A stretch of DNA of 64,000 nt from a virus: positions 64,001 through 128,000 of the IMG/VR virus record IMGVR_UViG_3300028920_000026; one strand, 5' to 3'. The notes beneath the pieces were generated by a model. It was not told the origin of the DNA and searched no databases. It was given only the letters and a program-made list of their open reading frames with translations. Of this stretch, positions 2,600 to 35,101 are shown one piece after another (position 1 is the stretch's first letter; each line of letters begins with the position of its first letter). The translations under genes and the position numbers were made by a program.

Positions 2600-3164
2600 A
2601 CAAATGAAGGTGTTTGGCATCGGATTGAGCAAAACGGCAACGAAAAGCCTCAGCGAGGGACTCGGGATGCTTGGACTCAATTCAGTCCACTGCCCATTCG
2701 ATGACAATGCGTATGCTCAGATCCTTAAAGGAAACTTCGACCTTGATGTCTTCAAACGTTTTGATGCCGTTGCCGACATCCCATGCGCACTGTGCTTTGC
2801 GCAGCTTGATGTGCTGTACCCAAACGCAAAGTTTGTCCTTACTCAGCGCGAACGTAAAAGCTGGCTGGATTCGTGTGAAGAACACTTCACAAAGCGAAAC
2901 CCAAACAAGAGGTCTGAGCTCCTCCGCGTCGCCGTCTATGGATGCGGGAAGTTCAATAGAGACCGTTTCGATTGGGTGTACGACAACTACGTTGCTTCGG
3001 TCAGGCGGCACTTCGATGGCAGACAAGACAAGCTACTCGAACTCAATATAATCGCTGGAGAAGGTTGGGCCAAGCTGTGTAGATTCCTCGACAGTCCAGA
3101 GCCAAAGAGAGGATTTCCGAGGATCAAGAACCCGCGTCAGTTTACACAGGCAAGGAAGAAGTAA
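2586..3164 (+). CDS. sulfotransferase-family protein
   Basis: N-terminal KVFGIGLSKTATKSL resembles the PAPS-binding P-loop of Sulfotransfer-type enzymes. First gene of a tightly packed, overlapping sugar-modification operon. Confidence 0.5.
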   Translation: MDVYEQMKVFGIGLSKTATKSLSEGLGMLGLNSVHCPFDDNAYAQILKGNFDLDVFKRFDAVADIPCALCFAQLDVLYPNAKFVLTQRERKSWLDSCEEHFTKRNPNKRSELLRVAVYGCGKFNRDRFDWVYDNYVASVRRHFDGRQDKLLELNIIAGEGWAKLCRFLDSPEPKRGFPRIKNPRQFTQARKK

Positions 3165-4462
3165 TGTTTGAGGCAGATGACATCATCAATGCGATCAACG
3201 ACTGTCGCGTCAAGGTCGGTGTTGTGGGACTTGGATACGTTGGTCTTCCGCTTGCACTCGCGTTTGTAAAGTCGGGTATCCGTGTGTTTGGGTTCGATAC
3301 AAACAGCGAGAGGGCCTGGAAGATCGGCGCGGGTGAGTCACCGATGAGTCACATTAGCCATGACAGCGTCATGAATGCGCTGTCGAGCGGGCTTCTGAGG
3401 ATTTCGAACAAGGCAAATACGCTTGAAGAATGTGATGTCATCCTTGTTTGTGTGCCGACACCGCTTGGCAAGAAGGGCGATCCAAACCTCGAAAGCGTGA
3501 CTGATGTGGCAAGGACGATCGCCAGGTTGCCAATGAAACCACGTTTGATTGTCCTTGAATCGACGGTCTATCCAGGCGCAACAGAAGGCTCGTTCAAGGA
3601 CGCTCTTGAGGAGGGCGGCGCGCGATGCGGAGAAGACTTTCTACTTGCGTTCTCTCCTGAACGTGAGGATCCGGGAAATCCTGACTTCGGCACAACATCG
3701 ATCCCAAAGATCGTTGGTGGATTCGATGATGTGGCAACGAAGGTTGCAACAGCGTTCTATGATGTTGCGTTCAATATAGTTGTTCCAGTCGAATCGCCCA
3801 AGGTCGCTGAGGCTGCGAAGCTCCTCGAGAACACGTTTAGGATGGTCAACATCGCGCTAGTAAACGAGGTGAAGGTCGCGTTCTACAGGATGGGAATCGA
3901 TCCACTCAGCGTGATCGATGCAGCATCAACGAAACCCTTTGGGTTCATGCGGTTCGATCCTGGCCCAGGCGTCGGAGGACACTGCATTCCGATCGATCCG
4001 CACTACCTGAACTGGTCTGCTGATAGCTACGGTAGACGCATCAAGATGATCGATGTTGCAGCTCGTGTAAATGGAATGATGCCTGCATACGTCATTGACA
4101 GGATCCGTGTCGGGCTTGCGTCTCGTGGTGAGGCAATCAGAGGTTCTCGTATCCTCATCGTTGGTGTTGCATACAAGCGCGGCGTGGATGATGTTCGCGA
4201 GTCCCCCGCGCTGGCGCTTATCGAGGTGCTTCGCGGGTTCGGTGCAGAGGTTGAATACCACGATCCATTGGTAAAGAACCTCGAACTGGGGGAGCTCGAG
4301 TTTTCTAGCGTCCCGCTGAGCGACGTGTCAAAGTTTTCGGCTGCTGTTGTGGCTACAGATCAGGAGCGTGTTGATTGGAACGTCCTCATAGAGAACGCGA
4401 AGCTCGTCATCGACGCCAGAGGTGTCTACAGAGGCGACCATCAGAACCTGGTGAGAGCATGA
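3164..4462 (+). CDS. UDP-sugar 6-dehydrogenase (UDP-GlcNAc/ManNAc dehydrogenase family, WbpA/WecC-like)
   Basis: N-terminal Rossmann VGVVGLGYVGLPLA. Catalytic GGHCIPIDP cysteine motif. ESTVYPG motif. 432 aa, typical of UDP-glucose/GDP-mannose dehydrogenase family. Confidence 0.85.
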   Translation: MFEADDIINAINDCRVKVGVVGLGYVGLPLALAFVKSGIRVFGFDTNSERAWKIGAGESPMSHISHDSVMNALSSGLLRISNKANTLEECDVILVCVPTPLGKKGDPNLESVTDVARTIARLPMKPRLIVLESTVYPGATEGSFKDALEEGGARCGEDFLLAFSPEREDPGNPDFGTTSIPKIVGGFDDVATKVATAFYDVAFNIVVPVESPKVAEAAKLLENTFRMVNIALVNEVKVAFYRMGIDPLSVIDAASTKPFGFMRFDPGPGVGGHCIPIDPHYLNWSADSYGRRIKMIDVAARVNGMMPAYVIDRIRVGLASRGEAIRGSRILIVGVAYKRGVDDVRESPALALIEVLRGFGAEVEYHDPLVKNLELGELEFSSVPLSDVSKFSAAVVATDQERVDWNVLIENAKLVIDARGVYRGDHQNLVRA

Positions 4463-5550
4463 AAGTTCCGTACAACGACCTATCACGTGTCAATGGTGAG
4501 TTTGTCGAAGAATTTCTTGAAGATGTTGTAGACATCATCGAAGGATCTTCGATCATCGGTGGAAGACACGTCGAAGAATTTGAAACAAGGTTTGGAGAGA
4601 TGGTTGGTAGGCCTGCTGCGGGGGTTTCGAACGGCACAGACGCGTTGGCCGTCATACTTCGTGCCCTAGAACTCGAACCCAAGGATGACAGGTACATCTA
4701 CTATCCAGCGAACACGTTTATTGGGTCGATCCTGAGCGGGATCAATATGGGCTTCAAATTCAAGCCGTTCGATGTGGAATTAACAACGTTAAACGCTCCC
4801 AGATCGTTCAGGCCTCCAGACGACGCACAGGCCGTGGTGCTTGTTCACCTCTATGGGTATGGAGTCAAGGGAGCGGGAACGCTTGCGACGAGGTGTCGAA
4901 GCGCAGGAATTCCACTCATCGAAGACTGCTCACAATCACACTTTCAGAAGGTTTTGGGTAGGGACGTCGGTACGTTCGGAGACGCAGGCTTCTTTTCATG
5001 CTATCCTGGTAAGAACTTGGGTGCTCTTGGGGACGCTGGCGTCATCATTGGTAGCGACAGCCTTGTTGCAAAGGCAAAGGCGCTGCGAAGCTATGGGTGC
5101 GTCAAGAAGCACGGCTACGAGTATGTTGGGTTCAACCATAGACTCGATGCGATTCAAGCTGCGTTCTTGACGCACAAGCTGAAGTACTCGACGCTTGATA
5201 TCAGCATGCGCAGAGACGTCGTAGCCGATCTGCTTCGTGCATGTTCCGGCAACGATGACATCCTCTCACTCGACGTTGGAATAGACGAGAGCGTCTGGCA
5301 CGTGTTTCCGGTGCTCGTTGAAGACAGGAACGCGTTCATTGAACACATGGAAGCGCACGAAGTACAGTGCGTCATTCACTATCCGACGGTCATCCACAAG
5401 GAACATACGTTCTCTCGGTGGGTTGTAGACGTAGAGTGCCCGATCGCTGAATACGCTGCGAAGCATGTCGTTAGCATTCCGTGTCATGGGCGGATGAGGG
5501 ATGAGGAGGTAAAGGTTGTCTGCAAAGCTATCGATTCCTTTAGGAACTAA
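4459..5550 (+). CDS. DegT/DnrJ/EryC1/StrS-family sugar aminotransferase (WbpE-like)
   Basis: ATGA overlap with upstream gene. Motifs NDLSRVN, GTDAL, and NHRLDAIQAA (PLP-dependent sugar aminotransferase signatures). Length ~363 aa. Confidence 0.85.
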   Translation: MKVPYNDLSRVNGEFVEEFLEDVVDIIEGSSIIGGRHVEEFETRFGEMVGRPAAGVSNGTDALAVILRALELEPKDDRYIYYPANTFIGSILSGINMGFKFKPFDVELTTLNAPRSFRPPDDAQAVVLVHLYGYGVKGAGTLATRCRSAGIPLIEDCSQSHFQKVLGRDVGTFGDAGFFSCYPGKNLGALGDAGVIIGSDSLVAKAKALRSYGCVKKHGYEYVGFNHRLDAIQAAFLTHKLKYSTLDISMRRDVVADLLRACSGNDDILSLDVGIDESVWHVFPVLVEDRNAFIEHMEAHEVQCVIHYPTVIHKEHTFSRWVVDVECPIAEYAAKHVVSIPCHGRMRDEEVKVVCKAIDSFRN

Positions 5551-6343
5551 GGTCGGAATCGTCGGCCTCGGCTATTGGGGGTCTATTGTTCGTCGTGTCG
5601 TTGGCAAGGAAAACGTCCACATGACGTACGACGTGAAGTACGACCCTACGGAACGCTATGAGAAGCTGCTTGTTGATTGTACACATGTCATCGTCGCATC
5701 TCCGGCGACGACACACGTAAGCATCGTAAATGATGCGATCAAACATGGGTGCCATGTGTTCTGTGAGAAGCCCTTGGGTGTTCATTCTTACATCGCGGAA
5801 CAGGCGTTCGATCTTGCGTTAAAGCGAGGAACAAAGCTTCACGTTGATTGGGTGTTTCGATACAACGAACAGGTGAAGAAGATCGTTGAACTCGACTGGT
5901 CGCTGCGTCGAGCAGACATGCTGCGCTTGAACAACGGTCCAGCGCGCCAAGACGTTGATGCAAAGCACGACCTCATGTGCCACGATCTCTCGATCATCCA
6001 CGCGCTCATGGAGCCAGAACGCTTTGTCGGGATGCAGATCGAAAAAACACAGAACGTTGAACACACTGCATCGTGTAGGATGTACGACGGGATATCGGAC
6101 GTTCGCATGCATGCAAGCTGGAACTTTCCTGCGAAGGTAAGGACGTGCGTCTTTACGTTTGATGAGGGGATAGTCGTGTGGGATGATTCGACGGGAATAC
6201 TACGAGTCAACGGTGATGATGTACGGTGCGATGGAAATCCTCCACTTACAAACAGCCTAGAATCGTTCTTCAACCATGATACTACGAGGGCATCGTATGA
6301 CGTGACGGCATCAGTCCTCAGAACGCTAGAGCGCGTCAAATGA
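5516..6343 (+). CDS. Gfo/Idh/MocA-family NAD(P)-dependent sugar oxidoreductase (WbpB-like)
   Basis: N-terminal VGIVGLGYWG Rossmann. EKPL motif. 275 aa. Positioned between dehydrogenase, aminotransferase and transferase genes. Confidence 0.7.
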   Translation: MSAKLSIPLGTKVGIVGLGYWGSIVRRVVGKENVHMTYDVKYDPTERYEKLLVDCTHVIVASPATTHVSIVNDAIKHGCHVFCEKPLGVHSYIAEQAFDLALKRGTKLHVDWVFRYNEQVKKIVELDWSLRRADMLRLNNGPARQDVDAKHDLMCHDLSIIHALMEPERFVGMQIEKTQNVEHTASCRMYDGISDVRMHASWNFPAKVRTCVFTFDEGIVVWDDSTGILRVNGDDVRCDGNPPLTNSLESFFNHDTTRASYDVTASVLRTLERVK

Positions 6344-7218
6344 TAGACGGGTACAAGGTCTTCGTCTGCTCGTTCGTCAGCAACTCAGTGACGACCGGAT
6401 ACGGGCCGATGATCGCTCCCGCGGTGAACTCGTGGTGTGATGTTTCGTACGTCGATAGGGTCGTTCTAGTCGACGGGATGTCAGATGACGACACGCGCTT
6501 GCTCGTGCCCGCTGATAGAAAGGTATCGATCGTCGACGGTCCAAGGTGGCCTGTAGATTCATGGTCGTGGAGGAACGTTATTGATGCAGAAAATACATTC
6601 GTCCAGGCTGTGCTCGACGATCCCCACCCGCGCAAGGTGTTTGCATACATGTCTATTGACAACGTCCTCTACCGTGATCACGCTGACCTCGCTGCGATGA
6701 GTAGGAGGATGATCAAAGATGATTTTGACTTTGTGATGATGCGTTTCGACAAGGCGTTCACACCTGCATACATCACGACTGATTATCCAGTCATGCCATC
6801 GAAGAACTGGTACATCTGCACGGCGACGCGTGTTGACGAGCGTTTCAAACCCACCAAGATCATCAATGAATGTGCCATTGATTACGAAAAGGCGGGTAAG
6901 ATCAGGGGAACGACGCACAGATTCAAGAGCGCACCGGTGTCATACGACATGTTCTTCTTCACGCGAGAACACGTTGAAGCAAAGGCGCAGCGCCACGTAG
7001 GGTTCCAGAACATGAAGCGCAAACCAACAATCAGCGAGCTCGTCGACAAACAGATGTCGAAGCTCAGGAAGCGCGGGATCAAGCTTCGCAAGGTATTGAT
7101 CGAACAACATCCAGAACGTATGCACGATGTTCTACAAAATACCCTAAGTGCTGAACACTACGGTTACAGTATGTTTGGATTGGTTGAGGGGGCAACTAAT
7201 GGCCTGAAGATCGTATGA
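6340..7218 (+). CDS. putative glycosyltransferase (GT2-like nucleotide-diphospho-sugar transferase fold)
   Basis: VVLVDGMSDDDT segment resembles the GT2 DxD/DDGSTD region. Weak call. Overlapping start and stop with neighbours. Confidence 0.35.
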   Translation: MIDGYKVFVCSFVSNSVTTGYGPMIAPAVNSWCDVSYVDRVVLVDGMSDDDTRLLVPADRKVSIVDGPRWPVDSWSWRNVIDAENTFVQAVLDDPHPRKVFAYMSIDNVLYRDHADLAAMSRRMIKDDFDFVMMRFDKAFTPAYITTDYPVMPSKNWYICTATRVDERFKPTKIINECAIDYEKAGKIRGTTHRFKSAPVSYDMFFFTREHVEAKAQRHVGFQNMKRKPTISELVDKQMSKLRKRGIKLRKVLIEQHPERMHDVLQNTLSAEHYGYSMFGLVEGATNGLKIV

Positions 7219-7835
7219 AGAAAGATGTAGTCGTTCTTGGAAAAGGAAACCTTGCTGTCCATGTAGCAAAGTACTTCCACGAAAAGTCTGATGATTATCG
7301 CCTTGTCTGTGTTGTACCGAACGATGATGAACCTGCGTGGGCTGGTGCCAAGCTTGCGGACTACGCCTACTTCAGGGATATCCCATGTGTCACCGTAAAC
7401 GATATCACAAACATTGACATTGCGTTCTCTATCTACCACGACAGGATCCTTAAGAAGGACTTCATCGACAGATGTGGAAGGATCTTCAACTTACACAATG
7501 GACCGCTTCCAAGATACCGCGGCGTCAGACCAGTGAACTGGGCCTTGAAGAACGGCGAAAACGAACACGGCGTGACCATCCATGAGATCAGTCCAGGTAT
7601 CGACGACGGTCCCATCATTGCTCAGGTGAAGTTTTCAATTTACCCTGAGATCGATGAGGTTTGGGATGTCTACCTGCGGTGCCTCGCGTTTGGAAAGCAG
7701 CTATTCGATTCAACGATTGAACGTCTAAACGACATAATTCCTCGTCCTCAGGACCACGGTCAAGCGACGATCTACTACTCAAAGCAGAATCATCTGCTTG
7801 GTGATCGCACCGACTGGCGGCGATGGGTGCAGTAG
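7215..7835 (+). CDS. formyltransferase (Fmt/ArnA N-domain-like sugar N-formyltransferase)
   Basis: NLHNGPLPRYRGVRPVNWAL ... HGVTIHEI..GIDDGPIIAQ matches the formyl_trans_N catalytic core (HxSLLPxxRG ... D.G.I). Confidence 0.7.
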   Translation: MKKDVVVLGKGNLAVHVAKYFHEKSDDYRLVCVVPNDDEPAWAGAKLADYAYFRDIPCVTVNDITNIDIAFSIYHDRILKKDFIDRCGRIFNLHNGPLPRYRGVRPVNWALKNGENEHGVTIHEISPGIDDGPIIAQVKFSIYPEIDEVWDVYLRCLAFGKQLFDSTIERLNDIIPRPQDHGQATIYYSKQNHLLGDRTDWRRWVQ

Positions 7836-8276: not shown

Positions 8277-8843
8277 ATGACATACATGTCAAACGAAGAT
8301 TTCGAAAAACTTACGCCGTTCATCAAAGAAGGGTTGGGCCCAATAACAGAAGATGAATCCGTGTTGCACATCCGCGTGCAGGTCATCGACCCTTCAACGA
8401 GGCGCTTCGTTGACGTTGAAAAGGAAGTTGCAATGCGTAACGCGAAGGAGTGGTTTGAATTCTTCGCGTTAGGTCTTAGCTACGTTTTCCAGAACAAGAC
8501 GATCGCGTGGCGCGGGACCATCAAGCTACACGGCAAGAAGATCGTGGCGATCAAGGTCCTACGAGAGATCAGCGGTTTTTCGCCAGTGAGGACGCCGAAT
8601 GTGCAGTCGAACGTTAGCCTCACCCTGAAGGAGGCAAAGGAGAGCATCGAGGGTGCTTTGTTCCATGTCTTTGTTGTCGGTGAGCGAGCAAAGGCCGCCG
8701 TCGAAGTGGTCGTACTCGGTGCAAATCTGAGCATTGACTTCGAACGAGGCGCTCCACCAAAGTCGTCTCCCGAGGTACGGAACTACACAATCCCAGTCAT
8801 CTTTGACGTGGGAATACAATCTCAGGTAAATCTGTTCACATAG
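8277..8843 (+). CDS. hypothetical protein
   Basis: 188-aa ORF preceded by a repeat-rich intergenic region. Confidence 0.5.
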   Translation: MTYMSNEDFEKLTPFIKEGLGPITEDESVLHIRVQVIDPSTRRFVDVEKEVAMRNAKEWFEFFALGLSYVFQNKTIAWRGTIKLHGKKIVAIKVLREISGFSPVRTPNVQSNVSLTLKEAKESIEGALFHVFVVGERAKAAVEVVVLGANLSIDFERGAPPKSSPEVRNYTIPVIFDVGIQSQVNLFT

Positions 8844-11135: not shown

Positions 11136-11591
11136 ATGGGTTCATTGAACGCAAATGACGCCGCTCGGCGTGTCTCTGCGACGTGGTACAAGGACAGGCT
11201 CTTTCTGCTGTACATCCTTGTTACCTTTGGATTTGCTACGCTTTTGTTTGTGTCTGTGTTCTTCAACATGGGAATTGTTGCTCTGTTGACGTCTTTCGTG
11301 GGGGCCGCTCACTACGTGGTGTTGGCACTTGCACGTTCGCGTAGGGTGATACAGGAACTCATCCAGGGCGAACTCGCGGTGCCTGAAGACAGTTTGCTAT
11401 CGCAATCGGGTGCAGCTCACAAACAAAAGCGCGTACTAATTTCACAGTCGAATATCCCAGTGCAGGATAAACCCGTGCCGTCTACAATGTACAGGTTCGG
11501 AGGATCTCAGTGCCCTCCTCCACCGACTCCAGAAGAGTTGGATGATAGGTGGGACACGCAGGATCGTGACTCCGGGATATTCAACATCTAG
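11136..11591 (+). CDS. membrane protein
   Basis: Two hydrophobic helices near the N-terminus (LFLLYILVTFGFATLLFVSVFF, VALLTSFVGAAHYVVLAL). Confidence 0.5.
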   Translation: MGSLNANDAARRVSATWYKDRLFLLYILVTFGFATLLFVSVFFNMGIVALLTSFVGAAHYVVLALARSRRVIQELIQGELAVPEDSLLSQSGAAHKQKRVLISQSNIPVQDKPVPSTMYRFGGSQCPPPPTPEELDDRWDTQDRDSGIFNI

Positions 11592-15213: not shown

Positions 15214-15286
15214 TCCTCGGTAGCTCAACTGGTAGAGCGCCCGGCTGTTAACCAGGTGGTTGCAGGTTCGACTCCTGCCTGGGGAG
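15214..15286 (+). tRNA. tRNA-Asn (GTT)
   Basis: Acceptor TCCTCGG/CTGGGGA (2 GU), D-arm GCTCAACTGGTAGAGC, anticodon loop CTGTTAA, T-arm GCAGGTTCGACTCCTGC. Confidence 0.65.
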
Positions 15287-15368
15287 CTGAGAAATCACTC
15301 GTCAGTAACGTACGACGTAAAGGTCATTCTGAATGACTGAGAACGTGAAAAATGAGTGTAAATTCTCT

Positions 15369-15439
15369 TGGGGTTTAGTTTAATGGTAAAATGTCAGGCT
15401 CTGAACCTGAAGATCTGTGTTCGATTCACAGCACTCCAA
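15369..15439 (+). tRNA. tRNA-Gln (CTG)
   Basis: Anticodon stem TCAGG/CCTGA with loop CTCTGAA. T-arm CTGTGTTCGATTCACAG. One acceptor mismatch. Confidence 0.5.
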
Positions 15440-15486
15440 CAAAGCTAAAATGTCCACATTGTGATCATACGTTTACAAAACATGAC

Positions 15487-15559
15487 GGGCTAGTCGGTTA
15501 ATTGGTTAAACCACCAGACTCTTAATCTGGGACTGTGGGTTCGAGTCCCACCTGGCCTA
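15487..15559 (+). tRNA. tRNA-Lys (CTT)
   Basis: Acceptor GGGCTAG/CTGGCCT, D-stem GGTT/AACC, anticodon stem CCAGA/TCTGG loop CTCTTAA, T-arm GTGGGTTCGAGTCCCAC. Confidence 0.6.
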
Positions 15560-15638
15560 CAACGTTGAAATTTCTTTGACACTCGTGTGTAAAACTTGTA
15601 CACCAGTGGTACACTGAATGTAGGAGAAGCACAATACG

Positions 15639-15956
15639 TTGGTATCAATCACCAAACGGATTGGCATTATCGGTGAATTAGCGATTGCTCAAGATCTTGT
15701 TGTACGAGGTTTTGATGTCTTTACTTCGATAGGCGACAATTCAAAGGTAGATTTGGTTGCTTTACGTAAAACGCAAACGTTTCGCATTCAAGTAAAGACG
15801 GTCAAAAGGGTAACGAGCGTTGTTCCTGTTGTTGGATTGAAATACGTAGCAAGAAAACATGTCTTGTATAATACTGCAGATGTTGACGTAATTGCAATTT
15901 ATGTTATCGAACAACGCATTATCGCATACGTACCGATGCATGAGTTGATGACTTAG
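15639..15956 (+). CDS. YraN/UPF0102-like small PD-(D/E)xK nuclease
   Basis: IGELAIAQDLVVRGFDVF...SKVDLVAL matches the GxxxExxA...G....GE(I/V)DL(I/V)A core of YraN-family endonucleases. AT-rich island inside the tRNA array. RBS AGGAGA upstream. TTG start. Confidence 0.5.
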   Translation: MVSITKRIGIIGELAIAQDLVVRGFDVFTSIGDNSKVDLVALRKTQTFRIQVKTVKRVTSVVPVVGLKYVARKHVLYNTADVDVIAIYVIEQRIIAYVPMHELMT

Positions 15957-16045
15957 AACAAAACAGGTCAATGTCATTAAGGATAACTCAATCAAAAATT
16001 GTCAAATTAAGAGAATGAAGTATCTAAAAGATTATGTAGAATTTC

Positions 16046-16118
16046 CCCCACGTAGCGTAACGGATAGCACACCTGACTACGAATCAGGAGAGTGAAGGTT
16101 CGAATCCTTTCGTGGGGT
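16046..16118 (+). tRNA. tRNA-Arg (ACG)
   Basis: Acceptor CCCCACG/CGTGGGG, anticodon stem CCTGA/TCAGG loop CTACGAA (A34 would require deamination to I), T-arm GAAGGTTCGAATCCTTT. Confidence 0.7.
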
Positions 16119-16120
16119 CT

Positions 16121-16193
16121 GCGGAGGAGTGAAATGGTTTACACACTGGGCTCATAACCCAGGAACAGCGAGGTTCGACTCCCGTCTCCGCTA
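16121..16193 (+). tRNA. tRNA-like, anticodon CAT, defective T-stem (possible pseudo-tRNA)
   Basis: Acceptor GCGGAGG/TCTCCGC, anticodon stem CTGGG/CCCAG loop CTCATAA. The T-loop TTCGACT is present but flanking bases form only 2-3 bp. D-stem also poor. Confidence 0.35.
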
Positions 16194-16195
16194 CG

Positions 16196-16396
16196 ATGGC
16201 ATTTATAAGGAAAAAGAAGCTGCAGGATGATGAAGGCTCAAAGAGAGAGGAGGTTCCGTTCGATATCGTAGAAAAGGAGGTTACGATGTCAGATGGTTCT
16301 GTCATCAGCTTTCCGGTGAAGGTCTACAACACTCTTGATCCACACCGGAATGTGCAGGGAGCTGCACAGCCGACGAATGCGTGGACTCATGAGTAG
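16196..16396 (+). CDS. hypothetical small protein
   Basis: 66-aa ORF starting at ATG immediately after a tRNA-like gene. Could be spurious. Confidence 0.2.
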   Translation: MAFIRKKKLQDDEGSKREEVPFDIVEKEVTMSDGSVISFPVKVYNTLDPHRNVQGAAQPTNAWTHE

Positions 16397-16399
16397 TAT

Positions 16400-16473
16400 T
16401 GGCACATGGTGTAGGTGGTTTCGCACGCCTGCCTGATAAGCAGGAAGATAGGGTTCAACTCCCTGTGTGCCAA
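16400..16473 (+). tRNA. tRNA-Ile (GAT)
   Basis: Acceptor TGGCACA/TGTGCCA, anticodon stem CCTGC/GCAGG loop CTGATAA, T-arm TAGGGTTCAACTCCCTG. Confidence 0.65.
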
Positions 16474-16728
16474 CTCTGCGAAGTAACCGAGCTCTTAGCG
16501 AGCAGTAGAACTACATGGTGTAATGTTTGCATACCAGGCGGAAACCTGGCGGTGTGGGATTCGAACTCCGCTGCAAGAAGGTGAACAGGCAGACACTCTA
16601 CAACGTAGAAGTGTTTAGATAGATCGGTGCTGTGTCATCCGCGTCGAGCGGGATCCCGCAGGTGTAGCAAACCTGCTCTTTGTCGGCGTAATAGCGTGGT
16701 TCAAGTACAGGCCACGTCACGTAAAATT

Positions 16729-16803
16729 GGTCCTATCGTCTAGTCCGGTCAGGACGCCAGACTCTCACTCTGGAAACGGCGGGTTCAAATCCCCCTAGGG
16801 TCA
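16729..16803 (+). tRNA. tRNA-Glu (CTC)
   Basis: Layout parallels E. coli tRNA-Glu (GGTCCTA TC GTCT ... GGAC). Anticodon stem CCAGA/TCTGG loop CTCTCAC. T-loop TTCAAAT. Confidence 0.6.
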
Positions 16804-16963
16804 CGGGTGGTTGGCTTCGAAAAAACGACAAGAAGGACGGGTCCAGCGCGTCTAACTCTTCTAGATGCAACGGGAACGGGTTGTTTTTCGGTGGGTTCGA
16901 TTCCCACTCGCCCAGCCATTTGGCTCCGTTTAATTCCCCTCGGAACTACGACAAGTAACCGTC

Positions 16964-17036
16964 AAATCGTTTAGTGTAGTGGACGCACCGTTGGCTCATA
17001 CCCAACAAGGTCAGGTTCGATTCCTGTAACAGTAGT
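16964..17036 (+). tRNA. tRNA-like with anticodon CAT (Met/Ile2-type), imperfect acceptor
   Basis: D-arm GTGTAGTGGACGCAC, anticodon stem GTTGG/CCAAC loop CTCATAC, T-loop GGTTCGATTCC. Acceptor pairing weak. Confidence 0.4.
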
Positions 17037-17049
17037 GAAAGTCAGCTAT

Positions 17050-17122
17050 GGGTCGTTGGTGTAACGGTTTAGCATTTCGGTTTCCAAGTCCGAAGATCAA
17101 GGTTCAAATCCTTGGCGACCTG
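17050..17122 (+). tRNA. tRNA-Trp (CCA)
   Basis: Acceptor GGGTCGT/GCGACCT, anticodon loop TTCCAAG between TCGGT/TCCGA, T-arm CAAGGTTCAAATCCTTG. Confidence 0.65.
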
Positions 17123-17283
17123 CGATTATATCGACGATGTAACAAGTGTTTCTACATGGAAGTAGCTTCTGGGTGTGAAAGGAGACCAACCCTTGCGACC
17201 TTCAATCGCGGAATCTTGGTCATCAGCGTGGAGCGTTCAGATGTTGTACATTAGCGGTTGTCTCGGTCTTTTTCTCCCTGAAT

Positions 17284-17354
17284 GGGTCACTGGTGCAACG
17301 GCAGCATAGCTGGCTCTTACCCAGTCGATCTCGGTTCGAATCCGAGGTGACCCA
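17284..17354 (+). tRNA. tRNA-Lys (CTT), second copy
   Basis: Acceptor GGGTCAC/GTGACCC, anticodon stem GCTGG/CCAGT loop CTCTTAC, T-arm CTCGGTTCGAATCCGAG. Confidence 0.55.
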
Positions 17355-17355
17355 C

Positions 17356-17427
17356 TGCGCGATGGAGCAGCCCGGTATTGCCAGTCTCATAAGCTGGAGG
17401 TCGCAGGTTCGAATCCTGCTCGCGCAA
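17356..17427 (+). tRNA. tRNA-Met (CAT), fMet-like D-arm
   Basis: Acceptor TGCGCGA/TCGCGCA, GAGCAGCCCGGTA D-region like initiator tRNA, anticodon stem CCAGT/GCTGG loop CTCATAA, T-arm GCAGGTTCGAATCCTGC. Confidence 0.55.
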
Positions 17428-17431
17428 CAAT

Positions 17432-17507
17432 GCCGATGTAGTTCAGCTACGAGAGAGCGACGGGCGTCCTGGCCCGTGAGTCCCTGGTGCAACCTCAGGC
17501 CTCGGCG
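17432..17507 (+). tRNA. atypical tRNA-like gene with 8-nt anticodon loop and variant T-loop
   Basis: Acceptor GCCGATG/CCTCGGC (6/7 bp), D-arm GTTCAGCTACGAGAGAGC, anticodon stem ACGGG/CCCGT enclosing CGTCCTGG (8 nt), T-arm CCTGG-TGCAACC-TCAGG (G55 instead of T55). Confidence 0.35.
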
Positions 17508-17586
17508 CGGCGATCTAGCGAAATGACATCACACTGGTATGCATAGGACCAGGTTCCTAGTTTGAGCCTGGGGATCGCCACAATGT

Positions 17587-17659
17587 GTCTCCGTAACTCA
17601 GTGGACAGAGTGCCACGCTTCGAACGTGGTGGACGTGGGTTCGAATCCTACCGGGGATG
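17587..17659 (+). tRNA. tRNA-Arg (TCG)
   Basis: Acceptor GTCTCCG/CGGGGAT, D-arm ACTCAGTGGACAGAGT, anticodon stem CCACG/CGTGG loop CTTCGAA, T-arm GTGGGTTCGAATCCTAC. Confidence 0.7.
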
Positions 17660-17801
17660 CGGTTATAACGAAGTAACAGTACCCTCTCACGTTAAGAGAG
17701 GGCATACCCAAGGTGAAAGGTCTCCGGCTATGATTATTTGGGTCCTTGTCCGGTTCGACAGAGGCGCAAGCAGGGGTGTTGAGACCTCTGGCCCAGCAGT
17801 A

Positions 17802-17874
17802 TGGGGCTGTAACTCAATTGGGAGAGTGCCAGCTTTGCAAGCTGGAAGTTGCGGGTTCGAACCCCGCCTGCTCC
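17802..17874 (+). tRNA. tRNA-Ala (TGC)
   Basis: Acceptor GGGGCTG with the G3:U70 Ala identity pair. Anticodon stem CCAGC/GCTGG loop TTTGCAA. T-arm GCGGGTTCGAACCCCGC. Confidence 0.7.
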
Positions 17875-18043
17875 ACTGGTGATGAGTAACTCTCGGATCG
17901 CTGGAACGTCCGGACCTAACGCAAGAGGTCGAATGTGAAAGTCACCAATAATCTCAAGTGTCTGTGGATGACAGGAGGATCTGTTAGTGCTGCAGATACG
18001 ACAAGTAACCTAACAAACGGGCCCGGCGGAGGATGCCGGTGGA

Positions 18044-18067
18044 CTGCACTTCGGTGCAGCGTGTTTT
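18044..18067 (+). terminator. terminator-like hairpin with TTCG tetraloop and T-run
   Basis: CTGCAC-TTCG-GTGCAG followed by CGTGTTTT, located inside the tRNA array just upstream of tRNA-Asp. Confidence 0.4.
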
Positions 18068-18082
18068 GGAGGTGAAAGTGTT

Positions 18083-18154
18083 GGTTCCGTCGTTTAGTGG
18101 TTAGGACATCTCCCTGTCACGGAGAAGACGAGGGTTCGATTCCCTTCGGGACCG
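18083..18154 (+). tRNA. tRNA-Asp (GTC), CCA encoded
   Basis: Acceptor GGTTCCG/CGGGACC, anticodon stem TCTCC/GGAGA loop CTGTCAC, T-arm GAGGGTTCGATTCCCTT, then GCCA. Confidence 0.7.
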
Positions 18155-18197
18155 CCAAGCCTTTTTAGAGGGAGCTCTGTACGAACAAGTTGTTGGC

Positions 18198-18408
18198 AAT
18201 CGAGCAGACCGGGTGATCGCCTGATTCGTCAGGAGGAAAGTCCGGGCACCGTAGAGTAGGACGCCAGATAACGCCTGGGTACAGTGATGTACATCGACGC
18301 AACAGAAAGTAAACCGCCTTCGGGTAGCTGCTTGAACCTATCTGTGAGGATCGGCCTAGATGAATGATCACCCTCGACAGAATCCGGCTTACAGGTCGGC
18401 TCGAAGCC
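18198..18408 (+). ncRNA. rnpB: RNase P RNA, bacterial type A catalytic domain only (no specificity domain), ~205 nt
   Basis: AGGAGGAAAGTCCGGGCACC (CR-I/P4 5' strand), GGACGCCAGATAACGCCTGGG (P15), CAACAGAAAGTAAACCGCC (cf. E. coli CAACAGAGAGCAAACCGCC), GGCCTAGATGAATGA (CR-IV/P4 3' strand), CGACAGAATCCGGCTTACAGGTCGGCTCGA (CR-V plus P1 3' strand). P1 TCGAGCAGACC/GGTCGGCTCGA. P2 GGGTGATC/GATCACCC. P3 CCTGA-TTCG-TCAGG. AAACCGCC is joined to GGTAGCTGCTTGAACC by a TTCG tetraloop where E. coli has the ~150-nt P9-P14 region. Confidence 0.8.
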
Positions 18409-18409: not shown

Positions 18410-19204
18410 TCACGCCGCCCGCTGCAACCTGCGTCGCCGCCTATTTGCAGAACGTACGATCCTGTCGACCTCATCTGGCTCAAGCTGTGCAAGCTGGGTT
18501 GCAAGGTCCTCTGGTTCCTTCGTTGCAGGAACCTCGGTGGATGTTACTGCTTCCTGTGATGTTGGTTCCTGCGCAGCATCCTGTGCTGCCGCGAGGTCTT
18601 TGTTGATTTGTCCGCCGATCTCACGTAGTTCTTCAGAGATCTGTTCGAGCTGTTCAAAGTTGAGTTTCAACGCGCCACGCGCGACGGAGTCCAACGCGCC
18701 GTTCCATTCTGCATTTGAGAACTCAAATGCATTGATGATAAGGTTTGCGGCGTCCTTTTCTGACATCCTACGTACGGCTTGGTCGCGTATAGACGCATTG
18801 CTCTTTTCGTCGATGGCTGCTGAGAGGTACTGTTGAACGTTTTCAAAGCCAAACTTGAGCTCTTCGAGAAATGTTGCAAACTGCTTCAGTACTCCTCCCT
18901 TGTAGAGCCCGCCAAGCCAGTTACGCATCCTGTTCCTGATTGTCTTCCCGTCGCGGAAGTTTGTTGCCTGCTTGAGGTCCGCTCGCAGCTCGTCAACGAG
19001 TCCTTGAGAGACCTTTTCCATTTCATCCATGTGTGCTGCACCCATGAGTCGCGACACGCGCTCGGCCTTCTTGATCGCGTCGCTGTAGCGTTCTAAGAGG
19101 TCCTTGTTGATGGCCTCGGCGATCAACTGTTCTTCGTGAGTGATACGCTTTACGCCTTCGTTGACGCGGCGCTCGAGTCGTCTAACCTTCAAGCTCGTTG
19201 ACAT
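18410..19204 (-). CDS. hypothetical protein (coiled-coil/alpha-helical)
   Basis: 264-aa minus-strand ORF converging on the RNase P RNA 3' end. Arg-rich C-terminus. Confidence 0.6.
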   Translation of the reverse strand: MSTSLKVRRLERRVNEGVKRITHEEQLIAEAINKDLLERYSDAIKKAERVSRLMGAAHMDEMEKVSQGLVDELRADLKQATNFRDGKTIRNRMRNWLGGLYKGGVLKQFATFLEELKFGFENVQQYLSAAIDEKSNASIRDQAVRRMSEKDAANLIINAFEFSNAEWNGALDSVARGALKLNFEQLEQISEELREIGGQINKDLAAAQDAAQEPTSQEAVTSTEVPATKEPEDLATQLAQLEPDEVDRIVRSANRRRRRLQRAA

Positions 19205-20504: not shown

Positions 20505-21356
20505 ATGAACCAAGCATCTAACTCGATGCAGGCGTATCTGCAGTCGCTCTACAAATTTCCACGTCTGACCCATAAGGAGTTGTGTGAAGCGTATACGAAC
20601 ATGCACGCTACCACAACAACAGAAGGCGAAAAAGAACGTCTTCGTAACATGATCACCCAGTGCAATCTCAGGCTGGTTGTGAGCGTCGCGAAGACGTACA
20701 ACCACGGGCAGTTCCCGATGTTGGATCTCGTACAGGAAGGCAACATCGGCCTAATGAAGGCAGTTGAGCGCTTCGACCATACGCGTGGCTACCAATTCAG
20801 TACGTTCGCAACGTGGTGGATCCGTCAGGCAATTGGACAGTACGTTCAGAAACACAAACGCACGATCCGCATGCCCTCTCACGCGTTGACCGCCCAGAAG
20901 CGCCTATTACAGGCTACACAGGAGTTTCGCGAGGAGTTTGGAGTTGAGCCGACAGAAGCTGAGGTCTTTGACAGGGTCTCTGAGATTTCAGAGACTGTCA
21001 AGAAGGCAACGATGTTTGCAGGAAGAGGAACGGTCTCGCTTGAGGCACCAGCATACATCGCAGGAAAGTCGAGCAGCAATGGTCCCCATGGTGAGACGAC
21101 GATTGGATCGACCATCGAGGATCACACCCCAGGTTCCGACCCGTTCCTGAACTGTTCAGATGCCGAAATCATCAAGATCGTAAGGGAGGTGATGCATCAC
21201 CTCCCTCCAAAGGAAGCCGCAATCATCCGCCTGCGTTTTGGCCTCGTTGAAGAAAAGACGAACCATGAAAAGTATCCTGTGACGCAGGAAGAGGTCGATG
21301 GCATCTCTAACGGAGTAGGATTAGAGGATGCTAGCGACAATGATAACACTGCTTGA
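20505..21356 (+). CDS. sigma-70 family RNA polymerase sigma factor
   Basis: Region 2 LRLVVSVAKTY...LDLVQEGNIGLMKAVERFD..GYQFSTFATWWIRQAI. Region 4-like AAIIRLRFGL. 283 aa. Confidence 0.85.
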   Translation: MNQASNSMQAYLQSLYKFPRLTHKELCEAYTNMHATTTTEGEKERLRNMITQCNLRLVVSVAKTYNHGQFPMLDLVQEGNIGLMKAVERFDHTRGYQFSTFATWWIRQAIGQYVQKHKRTIRMPSHALTAQKRLLQATQEFREEFGVEPTEAEVFDRVSEISETVKKATMFAGRGTVSLEAPAYIAGKSSSNGPHGETTIGSTIEDHTPGSDPFLNCSDAEIIKIVREVMHHLPPKEAAIIRLRFGLVEEKTNHEKYPVTQEEVDGISNGVGLEDASDNDNTA

Positions 21357-30784: not shown

Positions 30785-30858
30785 CGGGGCGTAGCTCAGT
30801 CTGGTAGAGCACGTGCTTTGGGAGCACGGAGTCGCACGTTCGATTCGTGTCGCCCCGA
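30785..30858 (+). tRNA. tRNA-Pro (TGG)
   Basis: Acceptor CGGGGCG/CGCCCCG, D-arm GCTCAGTCTGGTAGAGC, anticodon stem CGTGC/GCACG loop TTTGGGA, T-arm GCACGTTCGATTCGTGT. Confidence 0.7.
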
Positions 30859-31022
30859 CATAAGCCTATGTTTTGAGCATTTTTCTGTACCAACAGATTG
30901 TTGAATCCTATTCACTGCACCATCGAGAATCTACTCATGCCTACCCTGTCATGTCACTCCGATCAAGGCGCAATAGTGATGCGCTTTCCAATTCTGCCGA
31001 TGGCTCATGACTCGTTTTCGGC

Positions 31023-31268
31023 GTGAATAAGGAGAGTTTTGACTTGTCGGCCAGCCAAACTGCAGTGCGTATTTTGAACAGTCTGTCTGGGGTCTTCGTT
31101 GACAAGGTTTTACAGGCTGAAGATGCACACCAGGTGTTCGTTCGTGCTCGATTCGAGCCCACCAGCCTGCGCAGAATCCAAGCGAGGTTTCAAGCAGAGT
31201 TGGGACTCAACGACGCGCACGTGGTGCGCGTGCCCCCAACGCTTCAAAGGAATCCTCGCCTGATTTGA
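31023..31268 (+). CDS. hypothetical small protein
   Basis: 81-aa ORF between tRNA genes. Weak. Confidence 0.3.
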   Translation: MNKESFDLSASQTAVRILNSLSGVFVDKVLQAEDAHQVFVRARFEPTSLRRIQARFQAELGLNDAHVVRVPPTLQRNPRLI

Positions 31269-31330
31269 TGTGATGATATGGTATCGGTGGGCCTGTAGAG
31301 CATCAGCACTGTTCCGGGACGCACACACAT

Positions 31331-31403
31331 TAGGGTGTAATGTCAGCGGCAGACGGCCTCCCTTGGAAGGAGGAGGACGTGGGTTCGAGTCCCACCTCCC
31401 TGA
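31331..31403 (+). tRNA. tRNA-Pro (TGG)-like, imperfect acceptor
   Basis: Anticodon stem CCTCC/GGAGG loop CTTGGAA, D-stem TGTC/GACG, T-arm GTGGGTTCGAGTCCCAC. Acceptor TAGGGTG/CTCCCTG has a mismatch. Confidence 0.5.
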
Positions 31404-31405
31404 CG

Positions 31406-31942
31406 ATGTTGAATGATCTAAAATGGGTACGAGTCATTGAACCACACAGGACGATCGCAAGGCAGTTTGCGCACATGCAGGGTCTTTCGATGAAACATCA
31501 CGGAAAGGACTATGACGATTGGAGGAACGTTCAGGGTATGCTCGGTGAGGTCGTCCTTGCACAGATGCTCGGTTGTCTAAAGACGTGGCGCGAACACAAG
31601 GTTGAAACGCTCGCTTTGGACGCAGCATGGGACGGTGGGTACGACATGGCCTTCAACAATGTTCGTATCGATTGTAAGACGATCGCGTTCAGAAACCCGA
31701 ACAAGGTCGCCGACCTTCACCTTTACAGGGGCGACCACGAAGGCTGCGATGTGTATGCAGCGATGCTGATCAACGAGGCTGAACTCATGAGAGAGAAGGA
31801 CCTCCATAGCATCGATTGGATCGACAAGGTCTGGTGTGCAGGGTGGATAAACAGAAACTCGTTCACACAGCGTCACATGGGAAGGCTGCGTTTTCCATTT
31901 AAGGGTCTTCAACGCATAGATGAAATGGTTTTGTCGCGGTAG
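31406..31942 (+). CDS. hypothetical protein
   Basis: ATG right after the tRNA. 178 aa. Stop overlaps the tRNA-Phe 5' end. Confidence 0.5.
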   Translation: MLNDLKWVRVIEPHRTIARQFAHMQGLSMKHHGKDYDDWRNVQGMLGEVVLAQMLGCLKTWREHKVETLALDAAWDGGYDMAFNNVRIDCKTIAFRNPNKVADLHLYRGDHEGCDVYAAMLINEAELMREKDLHSIDWIDKVWCAGWINRNSFTQRHMGRLRFPFKGLQRIDEMVLSR

Positions 31943-32005
31943 CTCAGTTGGTAGAGCGCCTGCCTGAAGAGCAGGGCGTCGGGGGTTCGAACCCCTCCCG
32001 CGGCA
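31933..32005 (+). tRNA. tRNA-Phe (GAA)
   Basis: Acceptor GTCGCGG/CCGCGGC, D-arm GCTCAGTTGGTAGAGC, anticodon stem CCTGC/GCAGG loop CTGAAGA, T-arm GGGGGTTCGAACCCCTC. Confidence 0.7.
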
Positions 32006-32028
32006 CAGAATGGATACTTATCGTCAGA

Positions 32029-32562
32029 ATGGCAAAGAAGGACGACAAGGAGGTTGTGCCTGTCAACTTGATCAGCCCAAGCGAATCGAACTGGCCAAAA
32101 AAGAGCGTGACAAGTGCAAGCGACTGGCTGAAGAACTGGGCTGGGTTGCTGACTGCCGTCGCCGCGCTGCTGGCATCAGGCGGAACATACCTGCGTCCTT
32201 CGGAGGATCCAAAGTACAAGGAGTCGTATGAAGTTCTAAAGGAAAGGTACGACGATCAAGTCGAGGATATCGAAAGGCTCGAATCAAACGTCAAGTACCT
32301 CTATAGGCTTCGAGAGGAAGAGGACAGGACAAGACGAGTTGCGGCTACGCTTGAAACGTCAGCGTATGAGATCGAGGACAACATCCTCCGGCGGGAGCTC
32401 GAAACAAGGTACGGTAAGAAGTTCGCTGATGAGTACATGGACAAACGAGCAAAGAATAGGCGAGAGATCAGACAGGAATATGTAGGGAAGCTCAATAGGA
32501 AGCCACCGAGGGTACATGACACAATAGGCAAGAAGCTTCCACCCTATGGGCAGAAGGAATGA
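32029..32562 (+). CDS. membrane-anchored coiled-coil protein
   Basis: ATG 32029. TM segment WAGLLTAVAALLASGG followed by charged helical region. Confidence 0.5.
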   Translation: MAKKDDKEVVPVNLISPSESNWPKKSVTSASDWLKNWAGLLTAVAALLASGGTYLRPSEDPKYKESYEVLKERYDDQVEDIERLESNVKYLYRLREEEDRTRRVAATLETSAYEIEDNILRRELETRYGKKFADEYMDKRAKNRREIRQEYVGKLNRKPPRVHDTIGKKLPPYGQKE

Positions 32563-32631
32563 CGACGTGGCCGAGAGGCAAGGCACCTGGCTGCAACCCA
32601 GGCAACGCTGGTTCGAATCCGGCCGTCGTCT
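32561..32631 (+). tRNA. tRNA-Cys (GCA)
   Basis: Acceptor GACGACG/CGTCGTC, anticodon stem CCTGG/CCAGG loop CTGCAAC, T-arm GCTGGTTCGAATCCGGC. Confidence 0.65.
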
Positions 32632-32657
32632 CCGCGTAAATTAGTATTGAACTGAAT

Positions 32658-32692
32658 CCGGATGGGTTCGAGTAAGAAAGATGAAGTGGTGC
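32658..32692 (+). repeat. imperfect direct repeat copy A (GGATGGGTTCGAGTAAGAAAGATGAAGTGGTG)
   Basis: Matches 32951-32984 (GGATGGATCCGTGAAAGAAAAATGAAGTGGTG). The pair brackets a ~290-bp tRNA-containing segment. Confidence 0.6.
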
Positions 32693-32719
32693 CGAGTAAG
32701 GGCTATTGGTCCCGCGACG

Positions 32720-32808
32720 GGAAGCATAACCTATCCTTGGCGGAATTGGCATACGCGGACTGTCTAAAACAGTTTGCCTGAAAGGGCGTGCGGGTTCGAG
32801 TCTCGCAG
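32720..32808 (+). tRNA. tRNA-like element with long variable region (class II-like), boundaries unresolved
   Basis: Clear T-arm GCGGG-TTCGAGT-CTCGC, stem-loop ACTGT-CTAAAAC-ACAGT, GCC-TGAAA-GGC extra arm. No convincing 5' acceptor partner for AGGACTG. Confidence 0.3.
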
Positions 32809-32830
32809 GACTGAAGGTGAAAGGTACGTC

Positions 32831-32902
32831 GCTGGTGTGGTGATAATGGCAGCACGGTTCCCTGGTAAGGAACAAGCATGAGTTCGATTCTCGTCTCCAG
32901 CT
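32831..32902 (+). tRNA. tRNA-Thr (GGT)
   Basis: Acceptor GCTGGTG/CTCCAGC (one mismatch), anticodon stem GTTCC/GGAAC loop CTGGTAA, T-arm ATGAGTTCGATTCTCGT. Confidence 0.6.
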
Positions 32903-32950
32903 CGCGTAAGTTTTATCGAACTACATAATGATGTATGTTTAATGCAATTC

Positions 32951-32984
32951 GGATGGATCCGTGAAAGAAAAATGAAGTGGTGAA
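32951..32984 (+). repeat. imperfect direct repeat copy B
   Basis: See 32658-32692. Lies immediately upstream of the 32988 CDS start and contains its RBS-like AAGAAA. Confidence 0.6.
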
Positions 32985-32987
32985 AAC

Positions 32988-34224: not shown

Positions 34225-34244
34225 GCGCAAGAGAAGTAACCTAC

Positions 34245-34316: not shown

Positions 34317-34334
34317 GGTGAAACACTTGGGCGC

Positions 34335-34407: not shown

Positions 34408-34411
34408 CCAC

Positions 34412-35100: not shown

Positions 35101-35101
35101 C

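Follow-up and report, generated by a model that had tools for sequence, protein, structure and literature searches.

A short segment that follows a run of tRNA genes in a jumbo-phage genome resembles the RNA subunit of bacterial RNase P, and the question is whether it encodes a naturally minimised ribozyme or the remnant of a larger one. The window analysed here is a 64,000-nt stretch of a jumbo-phage contig of 331,213 bp (IMG/VR record IMGVR_UViG_3300028920_000026, positions 64,001 to 128,000). An earlier note, made from the letters of the window, had described the segment as a drastically minimised RNase P RNA, reduced to its catalytic domain, with which the phage would bring its own pre-tRNA 5′ processing.

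An RNase P RNA homologue at the end of a phage tRNA cluster

The 207 nt at 18201-18407 (+) are a homologue of bacterial type A RNase P RNA, matching the Rfam model RF00010 with 118.5 bits (E 1.2e-35), above the gathering score of 100. A cmsearch with the Rfam RNase P models was the search by which the earlier note had offered to be refuted, and it gave this significant match. When repeated at a permissive threshold, the alignment of 18201-18407 covered the model end to end (positions 1-367), and a full Rfam scan of the window returned it as the single RNase P match. The homology is real and statistically secure. An identical copy is present in Logan contig L001. Three reductions are seen relative to RF00010: a shortened P3, an 85-position model segment within P11 (P12-P14) to which no bases of the window RNA align, and a 52-position segment (P15-P17) to which two bases align. 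A plain minimum free energy fold of the RNA (z = -1.1) is uninformative because P4 is a pseudoknot.

ARAGORN identified 37 tRNA genes in the window, rather than the roughly 45 first estimated, all on the (+) strand. They do not form one giant array with the RNA at its end, as had been proposed, but two clusters, and the RNase P RNA ends the first of these (13 tRNAs, 15214-18157, +). The second cluster (24 tRNAs, 30785-43955, +) contained no RNase P RNA in the Rfam scan. The last gene of cluster 1, a tRNA-Asp(GTC) with an encoded CCA (18083-18157, +), lies 44 nt upstream of the RNA. On the other side is a convergent ORF of 264 aa (18410-19204, -) whose stop codon lies 3 nt past the RNA. This ORF has only two homologues among 5.8 billion proteins (38-39% identity), both on syntenic contigs, L016 and L017, to which it provides the synteny anchor.

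The window is phage DNA, encoding baseplate wedge proteins (phrog_6, phrog_219) and a tail-fibre protein, together with a T4 Rnl1-like RNA ligase, an ATP-dependent DNA ligase and a sigma-70-family factor. The earlier note was thus right that the phage encodes an RNase P RNA homologue, much shortened and on the strand of the tRNAs, as the RF00010 match and the surrounding phage genes show. Promoter and terminator scans were at background level. Neither a tblastn search with the RnpA proteins of E. coli, B. subtilis and T. maritima nor a search for the RNR motif found an RnpA-like ORF in the window (64 of 331 kb), a screen of low sensitivity. Neither a second intact copy nor a separately encoded missing piece, as in a split ribozyme, was present in the window or in the 9.7 kb beyond its start.

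Architecture of the 207-nt RNA

The elements of the RNA were placed using the Rfam structure line and an alignment to L016, the syntenic contig that carries a complete homologue; all lie on the (+) strand. Every sequence block quoted in the earlier note was located. The P1 5′ strand (18201-18210) pairs with 18394-18403, and the closing pairing CGAGCAGACC/GGTCGGCTCG holds as described, with 9 of 10 pairs formed and one A.G mismatch. The P2 5′ strand (18211-18218) pairs with 18366-18373 and has two compensatory changes relative to L016; P3 (18220-18233), cut to 5 bp with a UUCG loop, has four. J3/4 and the P4 5′ strand, AGGAAAGTCCGGGC (18234-18247, within the quoted block GGAGGAAAGTCCGGGC at 18232-18247), belong to the catalytic core, are identical to the Rfam consensus and are invariant in 13 phage RNAs.

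The next segment (18246-18263) leads from the P5 5′ strand (GCACC) through J5/7 and the P6 5′ strand to the P7 5′ strand (GGACG). The L016 alignment shows that P5 and P7 are orphaned here, their 3′ partners having been deleted. The orphaned P6 strand carries a window-specific change from GAGC to GAGT at 18257, where 10 or more of the 12 other phage RNAs retain the C; the change is compatible with both an inactive copy and a functional one. Directly 3′ of the P7 strand is a hairpin, GCCAGATAACGCCTGG (18264-18278, UAAC loop; quoted block GCCAGATAACGCCTGGG at 18263-18279), which had been taken as P15-like. The Rfam structure line instead puts it at P8, and the hairpin after it, GTACAGTGATGTAC (18279-18292), is P9 with a GUGA (GNRA) loop. 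P8 and P9 together (18264-18292) carry three compensatory changes relative to L016.

The orphaned P10/P11 5′ strand, ATCGACGC, and J11/12, AACAGAAAGTAAAC, follow at 18293-18314. A P12 stub with its UUCG cap (TTCG, 18319-18322; quoted block CAACAGAAAGTAAACCGCC, 18300-18318) and an L15/P15 remnant then occupy 18315-18331, separated by a junction that matches L016 minus a 117-nt block. The junction lies inside a CGGG at 18321-18324, and the sequence across it is CCTTCGGGTAGC (within 18290-18345). The remnant, GGGTAGCTGC, is the surviving 3′ half of L15 with the P15 3′ strand (within 18315-18331). P18 (18337-18354) has a GUGA loop and one U.C mismatch. J18/2, CCTAGATGAAT (18355-18365; quoted block GGCCTAGATGAATGA, 18353-18367), the P2 3′ strand, J2/4 and the P4 3′ strand, ACAGAATCCGGCTTA (18377-18391), complete the core within 18355-18391 in the Rfam alignment.

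P8 and P9 belong to the specificity (S-) domain of RNase P RNA, and P15-P17 to the catalytic domain, where they bind the tRNA 3′-CCA. The RNA is therefore not a catalytic domain on its own: P8, P9 and J11/12 survive from the S-domain, and the catalytic domain is not intact because the P5 3′ strand and P15-P17 are gone, along with P6 and J5/15. The related claim that the whole S-domain is absent is right for the AGGGTGAAA/GGTG and GTAAGAGC blocks, which are missing, and wrong for P8, P9, J11/12 and the 5′ strands of P7, P10 and P11, which are present.

Compared with a type A RNA as a whole, the P4 pseudoknot with its conserved J3/4-P4 and J2/4-P4 segments is retained together with J18/2, and P1, P2, P3 and P18 are all paired. 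The P5 and P7 closing helices and the P7-P10 four-way junction are represented by 5′ strands only, which Rfam marks as non-pairs. Of the T-loop module (P10/11, J11/12 with J12/13, P13 and P14), J11/12 and the P12 stub are left, the 3′ strands of P10 and P11, J12/13, P13 and P14 having gone; of J5/15 with A248, the CCA-binding P15-P17 internal loop and the P6 pairing, the 3′ half of L15 and P15 alone survives. The central 90 nt have no dominant alternative fold, with many unrelated structures near -16.6 kcal/mol. On inspection of the sequence, GCACC could re-pair with GGT-A-GC as a bulged substitute for P5.

A single 117-nt deletion relative to a syntenic phage RNA

L016 shares with the window the ligase, the sigma factor, the convergent ORF, the RNase P RNA and a tRNA, and at the corresponding site it has a complete type A RNase P RNA of 326 nt (259.4 bits) that contains P5, P7-P11, J12/13, P13, P14, P15-P17 and P18. 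Pairwise alignment showed that the L016 RNA, once a single contiguous block of 117 nt is removed, corresponds to the window RNA, with flanks that are otherwise near-identical; over all aligned columns, flanks included, the two RNAs are about 72% identical. The block, CAAGGGTGAAA...GTTTACGGG (CAAGGG...TTTACGGG), is bounded by a CGGG direct repeat, and taking it out of L016 recreates the window junction. Lost with it are the 3′ side of the P12 stub, J12/13, P13 and P14, the 3′ strands of P11, P10, P7 and P5, J5/15 with A248, P15-P17 and the P6 partner.

The earlier note had read the TTCG as a tetraloop that newly closes the shortened RNA. It is instead an inherited P12 cap, because the already truncated P12 of L016 has the same CCGCC-UUCG-GGC. 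Likewise, the drastic minimisation does not call for design, since one 117-nt microhomology deletion accounts for the shape. We therefore regard the shape of the window RNA as the apparent product of a single deletion between CGGG repeats rather than an evolved minimal design. The four helices that keep one strand each bear the mark of a random deletion and are unlike evolved reductions.

A junction of this kind could in principle arise in the computer, if the true genome were full-length and the assembler had collapsed 117 nt. Short rnpB-like matches in metagenomes are sometimes artefacts, and three of those discussed below (L014, L012 and L007) have NN gaps where the S-domain should be. The window junction contains no N, and an identical 207-nt RNA is found both in the separately built Logan contig SRR8554435_7062 and in the 331-kb ENA MEGAHIT contig. 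A de Bruijn graph built at k=141 would also not be collapsed by a repeat of a mere 4 nt. Given the independent Logan assembly and the absence of Ns at the junction, we consider an assembly artefact very improbable.

In P2, P3, P8, P9 and P18, at least 11 base pairs are still formed although both of their bases differ from those of L016. These compensatory changes may have come before or after the deletion. They do bear on a different origin for the RNA, as a random piece of a host rnpB that the phage captured and that at no time had a function in the phage lineage. The sequence is of bacterial type A, as that of a captured fragment would be. However, a complete copy occupies the syntenic position in the diverged L016, numerous compensatory changes separate the two RNAs, and the L016 RNA is nearer to its phage counterparts than to nine bacterial loci; a captured fragment is thus hardly credible. 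A genome-contig scan for a donor or host of the RNA gave taxa that were scattered and uninformative.

Presence and absence of the gene at this site

Two marker proteins were used to relate the window to L016 and L017. L016 and L017 are sisters, with 65% and 82% identity for the two proteins, and each has 38-39% and 58-59% identity to the window, giving the tree (window,(L016,L017)). On this protein-identity tree, the RNase P RNA gene is present with a deletion in the window, full in L016 and absent from L017. The L017 locus has the order ligase, sigma factor, ORF and tRNAs, with no RNase P RNA at the site, the tRNAs and a small ORF running into the convergent ORF.

Further relatives (L019-L023) were located through the sigma factor. 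In L019 and in a 324-kb phage (L020/L021) there is no RNase P RNA at the site, and a tRNA directly abuts the convergent ORF. No RNase P motif was seen in the array-1 locus of a more distant, 369-kb phage (L022/L023); this phage has a full-length RNase P RNA elsewhere, in another tRNA array (L078, on the same contig). On this pattern of presence and absence, the gene is dispensable at this locus.

Complete RNase P RNA genes in jumbo-phage tRNA arrays

A scan of IMG/VR for the P4 motif gave 82 loci. Full-length type A RNAs amid dense tRNAs were confirmed with Rfam at L060, L081, L047, L098, L078, L103, L028, L102, L052, L035, L039 and L062, and a further RNA, at L038, is cut off by the contig end. 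The jumbo-phage RNAs are 298-365 nt long and score 173-308 bits, on viral contigs of 100-497 kb; at least 13 jumbo-phage contigs in IMG/VR have an RNase P RNA in a tRNA array. On the basis of these full-length loci, rnpB recurs among jumbo phages that have tRNA arrays. Complete RNase P RNA genes are common in the arrays of such phages, and this is a more robust finding than the reading of the window copy.

The full-length RNAs (L016, L078, L098, L060, L081 and others) have the same position relative to tRNA genes as the window copy. L016 belongs to the same phage clade by its syntenic neighbours, and the L078 contig by its shared sigma factor. The RNAs of these relatives are complete, whereas the window copy has its 117-nt deletion. 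In an alignment of 13 sequences, the block from P12 to L15 is kept in all 12 other phage RNAs and is gone in the window copy alone.

The reduced architecture was not found in a second sequence among the 12 phage RNAs, in pattern scans of IMG/VR or in JGI metagenomes. The IMG/VR scans for a short P4-to-P4 spacing and a UUCG-capped P12 junction gave no matches. The JGI scan gave 13 short-spacing matches, none with the window architecture; besides the three with scaffold gaps (L014, L012 and L007), several came from cellular contigs, with genes for PFK, an ABC transporter or UDP-galactopyranose mutase. A search of IMG/VR with the DNA ligase gave a single short contig. Searches of INPHARED with the 207-nt RNA, with 24 kb of the window and with a 1398-aa protein found no relatives. 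The RNA matches there were bacterial DNA labelled as phage, and no isolated phage in that collection had a detectable homologue: an Acinetobacter 'phage' contig carries coaD and fdx, and the 'Microcystis phage MaAM05' region carries fabI, engB and mtgA.

A separate, conserved family of reduced RNAs (alignment A3) of 196-238 nt includes L065, L010, L009, L015, L006 and L004; L065 lies inside a tRNA array on a 203-kb IMG/VR contig. This family keeps an invariant GCAAC (the P5 3′ end with J5/15) and CGGGTAG (L15) and shows covariation in P1-P3. Reductions that have persisted in nature keep what is missing from the window RNA.

Catalytic capacity of the window RNA

The core motifs of P4, J18/2 and J2/4 are all intact. 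Setting the threshold for conservation at 10 or more of the 12 other phage RNAs gives 109 columns, of which the window RNA matches 71, differs at 8 and has lost 30. It thus matches 71 of the 79 conserved columns that it retains, and full-length phage RNAs differ at 4-25 when each is left out in turn. Because the retained part shows no extra decay, some residual function is conceivable, if doubtful. The data would fit either a recent deletion or a remainder that is still constrained.

In type A RNAs, tertiary braces join L18 with P8, L8 with P4 and L9 with P1, and the partners P8, P9, P18, P1 and P4 all survive in the window RNA. The P8/P18 brace is covered in PMC5839562. One could therefore picture a working, naturally minimised ribozyme in which P1-P4, J18/2 and J2/4 form the active site, P8, P9 and P18 act as braces and a bulged P5 (GCACC with GGT-A-GC) closes the core; host RnpA would bind the leader, so that recognition of the T-loop and CCA would be unneeded for phage tRNAs. 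The intact core motifs and the score over the gathering threshold are in keeping with this, as are the lack of excess substitutions at retained conserved columns, the preserved place and strand in the tRNA cluster, and the occurrence of reduced RNase P RNAs next to tRNA arrays on viral contigs. The compensatory changes relative to L016 would point to long-term structural selection, but they may predate the deletion. RNase P RNAs without P15 in some CPR bacteria (PMC8172020), and the archaeal type T, which is without most of the S-domain, function with protein help.

Several observations weigh against catalysis. The junction is exactly that of a one-step event, with no later remodelling and with four orphan strands kept, and the variant is confined to one lineage. 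A248 with J5/15 and P15-17 are gone, and the naturally reduced A3 family retains P5, J5/15 and L15. With P15-17 taken out of the full-size E. coli RNase P RNA, catalytic efficiency falls about 50000-fold; the E. coli C-domain RNA, itself some 500-fold below the full-size RNA, shows no detectable activity without P15-17 (PMC5839562), and it is to this last construct that the window RNA is equivalent. We therefore think it unlikely that this 207-nt RNA, made in a single deletion step, is a working catalytic subunit without the T-loop module, P15-17 and A248.

A non-catalytic role can also be imagined. P2, P3, P4, J18/2 and J2/4 are the protein-contacted region of the bacterial holoenzyme, and all are retained, so that the truncated RNA might bind host RnpA or pre-tRNA leaders and titrate or redirect host RNase P. 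For camelpox virus, the idea of an RNase P-like RNA that acts as a decoy has been discussed, although that RNA lowered host RNase P activity by only about 20% (PMC3001073). Nothing points specifically to such a role here, and the relatives carry complete, presumably active genes; we regard a decoy or regulator as improbable.

On balance, we favour the reading in which the window copy descends from a phage-borne type A rnpB by one recent deletion and is probably catalytically dead or severely impaired. Jumbo phages of one clade, which encode sigma factors, carry complete type A RNase P RNA genes within their tRNA arrays or at the ends of these, and such full-length genes, with host RnpA, may raise the rate of 5′-leader removal from the phages' many pre-tRNAs. 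In the window phage, the gene has lost 117 nt by deletion between two CGGG repeats, and with them the parts for T-loop recognition (J12/13, P13 and P14) and 3′-CCA binding (P15-P17 and P6). The remaining RNA would be catalytically dead or orders of magnitude slower, and the phage would depend on host RNase P. There is no close relative with which to date the deletion, which we infer to be recent. A phage supplying its own pre-tRNA 5′ processing, as first suggested, is thus plausible for the relatives with full-length genes and doubtful for the window copy.

Comparison with known RNase P RNAs

With RF00010 and E. coli M1 RNA, the window RNA shares P1-P4 with the GGAAAGUCCGG/ACAGAAnCCGGCUUA pseudoknot, P8, P9, P18, J18/2 and J11/12. 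It differs in being phage-encoded, in its length (207 nt, compared with about 330-400 for type A) and in being without J12/13, P13, P14, P15-P17, P6, A248 and the 3′ strands of P5, P7, P10 and P11. The engineered E. coli C-domain RNA, Eco CP RPR (PMC5839562), likewise has no T-stem-loop binding module, and its ΔP15-17 form, like the window RNA, has no CCA-binding module; however, Eco CP RPR keeps P5, J5/15 and P15-18, whereas the window RNA keeps P8 and P9 and has lost the P5 3′ strand.

The archaeal type T RNAs of Pyrobaculum and relatives are natural RNAs of ~200 nt with a degenerated S-domain (PMC5839562, PMC13462272). They have a complete C-domain, with P6 modelled as present and P18 absent, work with several proteins and are conserved in their lineage; the window RNA is without P15-17 and P6, has P18 and is a singleton. 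The CPR RNase P RNAs, which often fall under Rfam thresholds, are bacterial-type RNAs without P12, P13, P14, P16, P17, P18 or, in one case, most of P15 (PMC8172020). They are the sole cellular rnpB of complete genomes and their helices are paired, unlike the phage-borne window RNA with its orphan strands.

Full-text literature searches returned no report of a phage-encoded RNase P RNA, and the sole virus-encoded RNase P-like RNA found in the searched literature was the camelpox/orthopoxvirus candidate, which has only a loose structural similarity and showed no processing of pre-tRNA (PMC3001073). The phage RNAs, unlike the camelpox RNA, are clear homologues in both sequence and structure. In the huge-phage survey of Al-Shayeb et al. 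(2020), tmRNA is mentioned and RNase P is absent. The presence of rnpB in jumbo-phage tRNA arrays therefore appears to be unreported.

With these genes, RNase P RNA, the oldest ribozyme of tRNA maturation, joins the translation-related genes that are carried by phages. Nature has here provided a deletion mutant, the window copy, together with a full-length counterpart in L016, and the pair speaks to an old question, that of the minimal catalytic core of RNase P, in this case a type A RNA without P10-P17 acting with RnpA. If active, the window RNA would be the smallest bacterial-type RNase P RNA known; if inactive, as we expect, it would be an ordinary case of the decay of an accessory phage gene.

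RNase P RNA genes in the tRNA arrays of other viral contigs

The dense tRNA arrays of IMG/VR viral contigs of 100–497 kb were found to hold genes for full-length RNase P RNAs of bacterial type A. Designating each contig locus by an L-number, these genes lie at L060:5754–6097, L081:8153–8517, L047:800–1149, L098:6330–6684, L078:6074–6431 (a 369-kb related phage), L103:536–887, L028:12670–13008, L102:3911–4249, L052:4462–4786, L035:4030–4350, L039:512–862 and L062:6583–6880. They are 298–365 nt long and score 173–308 bits, apart from a partial RNA at L038:875–1112 (238 nt, 108 bits), where the contig end cuts the match off. No report of a phage-encoded RNase P RNA was found in the literature searched.

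Two INPHARED records filed as phage also carry an unannotated rnpB, in both cases amid bacterial chromosomal DNA: CAKLQF020000022.1 (47.3–47.7 kb, L024), where the neighbours are coaD and fdx, and MW495066.1 (112.8–117.9 kb, L107), where they are fabI, engB and mtgA. This bacterial DNA likely represents prophage flanks or contamination.

Reduced RNase P RNAs

Alignment A3 defines a separate conserved RNase P RNA family of 196–238 nt, with scores (70–79 bits) under the Rfam gathering score. P1–P3 covary within the family and the GCAAC and CGGGTAG sequences (J5/15 and L15) are invariant, while P18 is absent and the S-domain is tiny. Most members adjoin tRNA clusters. The members are L065:5637–5874, whose 203-kb viral contig has a tmRNA as well; L009:3706–3917, with strong PHROG matches; L010:1642–1851; L015:20–233; L006:3965–4178; and L004:3617–3812, whose contig looks cellular.

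Further rnpB-like sequences of about 210–230 nt were present on metagenome contigs. Those at L014, L012 and L007 are artefacts, because NN scaffold gaps occupy the expected position of the S-domain. The sequences at L005:1810–2021 and L008:933–1156 look like internal deletions or misassemblies. The remaining sequence (L013:5748–5961) is on a bacterial contig that also has a c-di-AMP riboswitch, and its RNA appears to be without P10–P14 and P18.

Possible sequence signals around the window RNase P RNA

The motif TACGA(A/T)CAA(G/A)TTGT is conserved 3′ of the final array 1 tRNA at each of the three loci compared: the window (18160–18200), its syntenic relative L016 (about 11185–11265, minus strand) and L017, the sister of L016 (about 6290–6320, minus strand). 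It is present with or without an RNase P RNA downstream. A small ORF follows it in L016 and L017, and in the window it immediately adjoins P1. The motif may be a phage promoter. Just 5′ of tRNA-Asp, the window also has a hairpin, CTGCAC-TTCG-GTGCAG (18044–18059, plus strand), that resembles a terminator and is followed by a T-rich stretch. Should transcription stop at this hairpin, tRNA-Asp could be transcribed together with the RNase P RNA as a separate unit.

Other RNAs and genes of the jumbo phages

Two jumbo viral contigs had further RNAs in their tRNA regions: a group I intron at L062:3325–3528 (RF00028, 68 bits) and a tmRNA at L065:1–209 (RF00023). In the 369-kb related phage, a tRNA with a CTA anticodon (L022:7310–7385), labelled Pyl by ARAGORN, is an amber suppressor; a second, odd tRNA (8359–8452) had its anticodon called as two bases.

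The phage has a nucleotide-sugar modification cluster (window 1406–7835, plus strand; the same genes are at L108:3545–9929), with precomputed Pfam matches to UDP-glucose dehydrogenase, DegT/DnrJ aminotransferase, GFO_IDH_MocA oxidoreductase, formyltransferase and sulfotransferase. A sigma-70-family factor (region 2; 20505–21356, plus strand) has homologues in the thousands. Many are on 200–370-kb contigs and mark a large jumbo phage clade, in which the syntenic order is tRNA array, sigma factor, DNA ligase and DUF2201. Finally, a T4 Rnl1-like RNA ligase (PF09511, phrog_562) is encoded at 44761–46002 (plus strand), about 800 nt past the last tRNA of cluster 2, which suggests phage tRNA repair.
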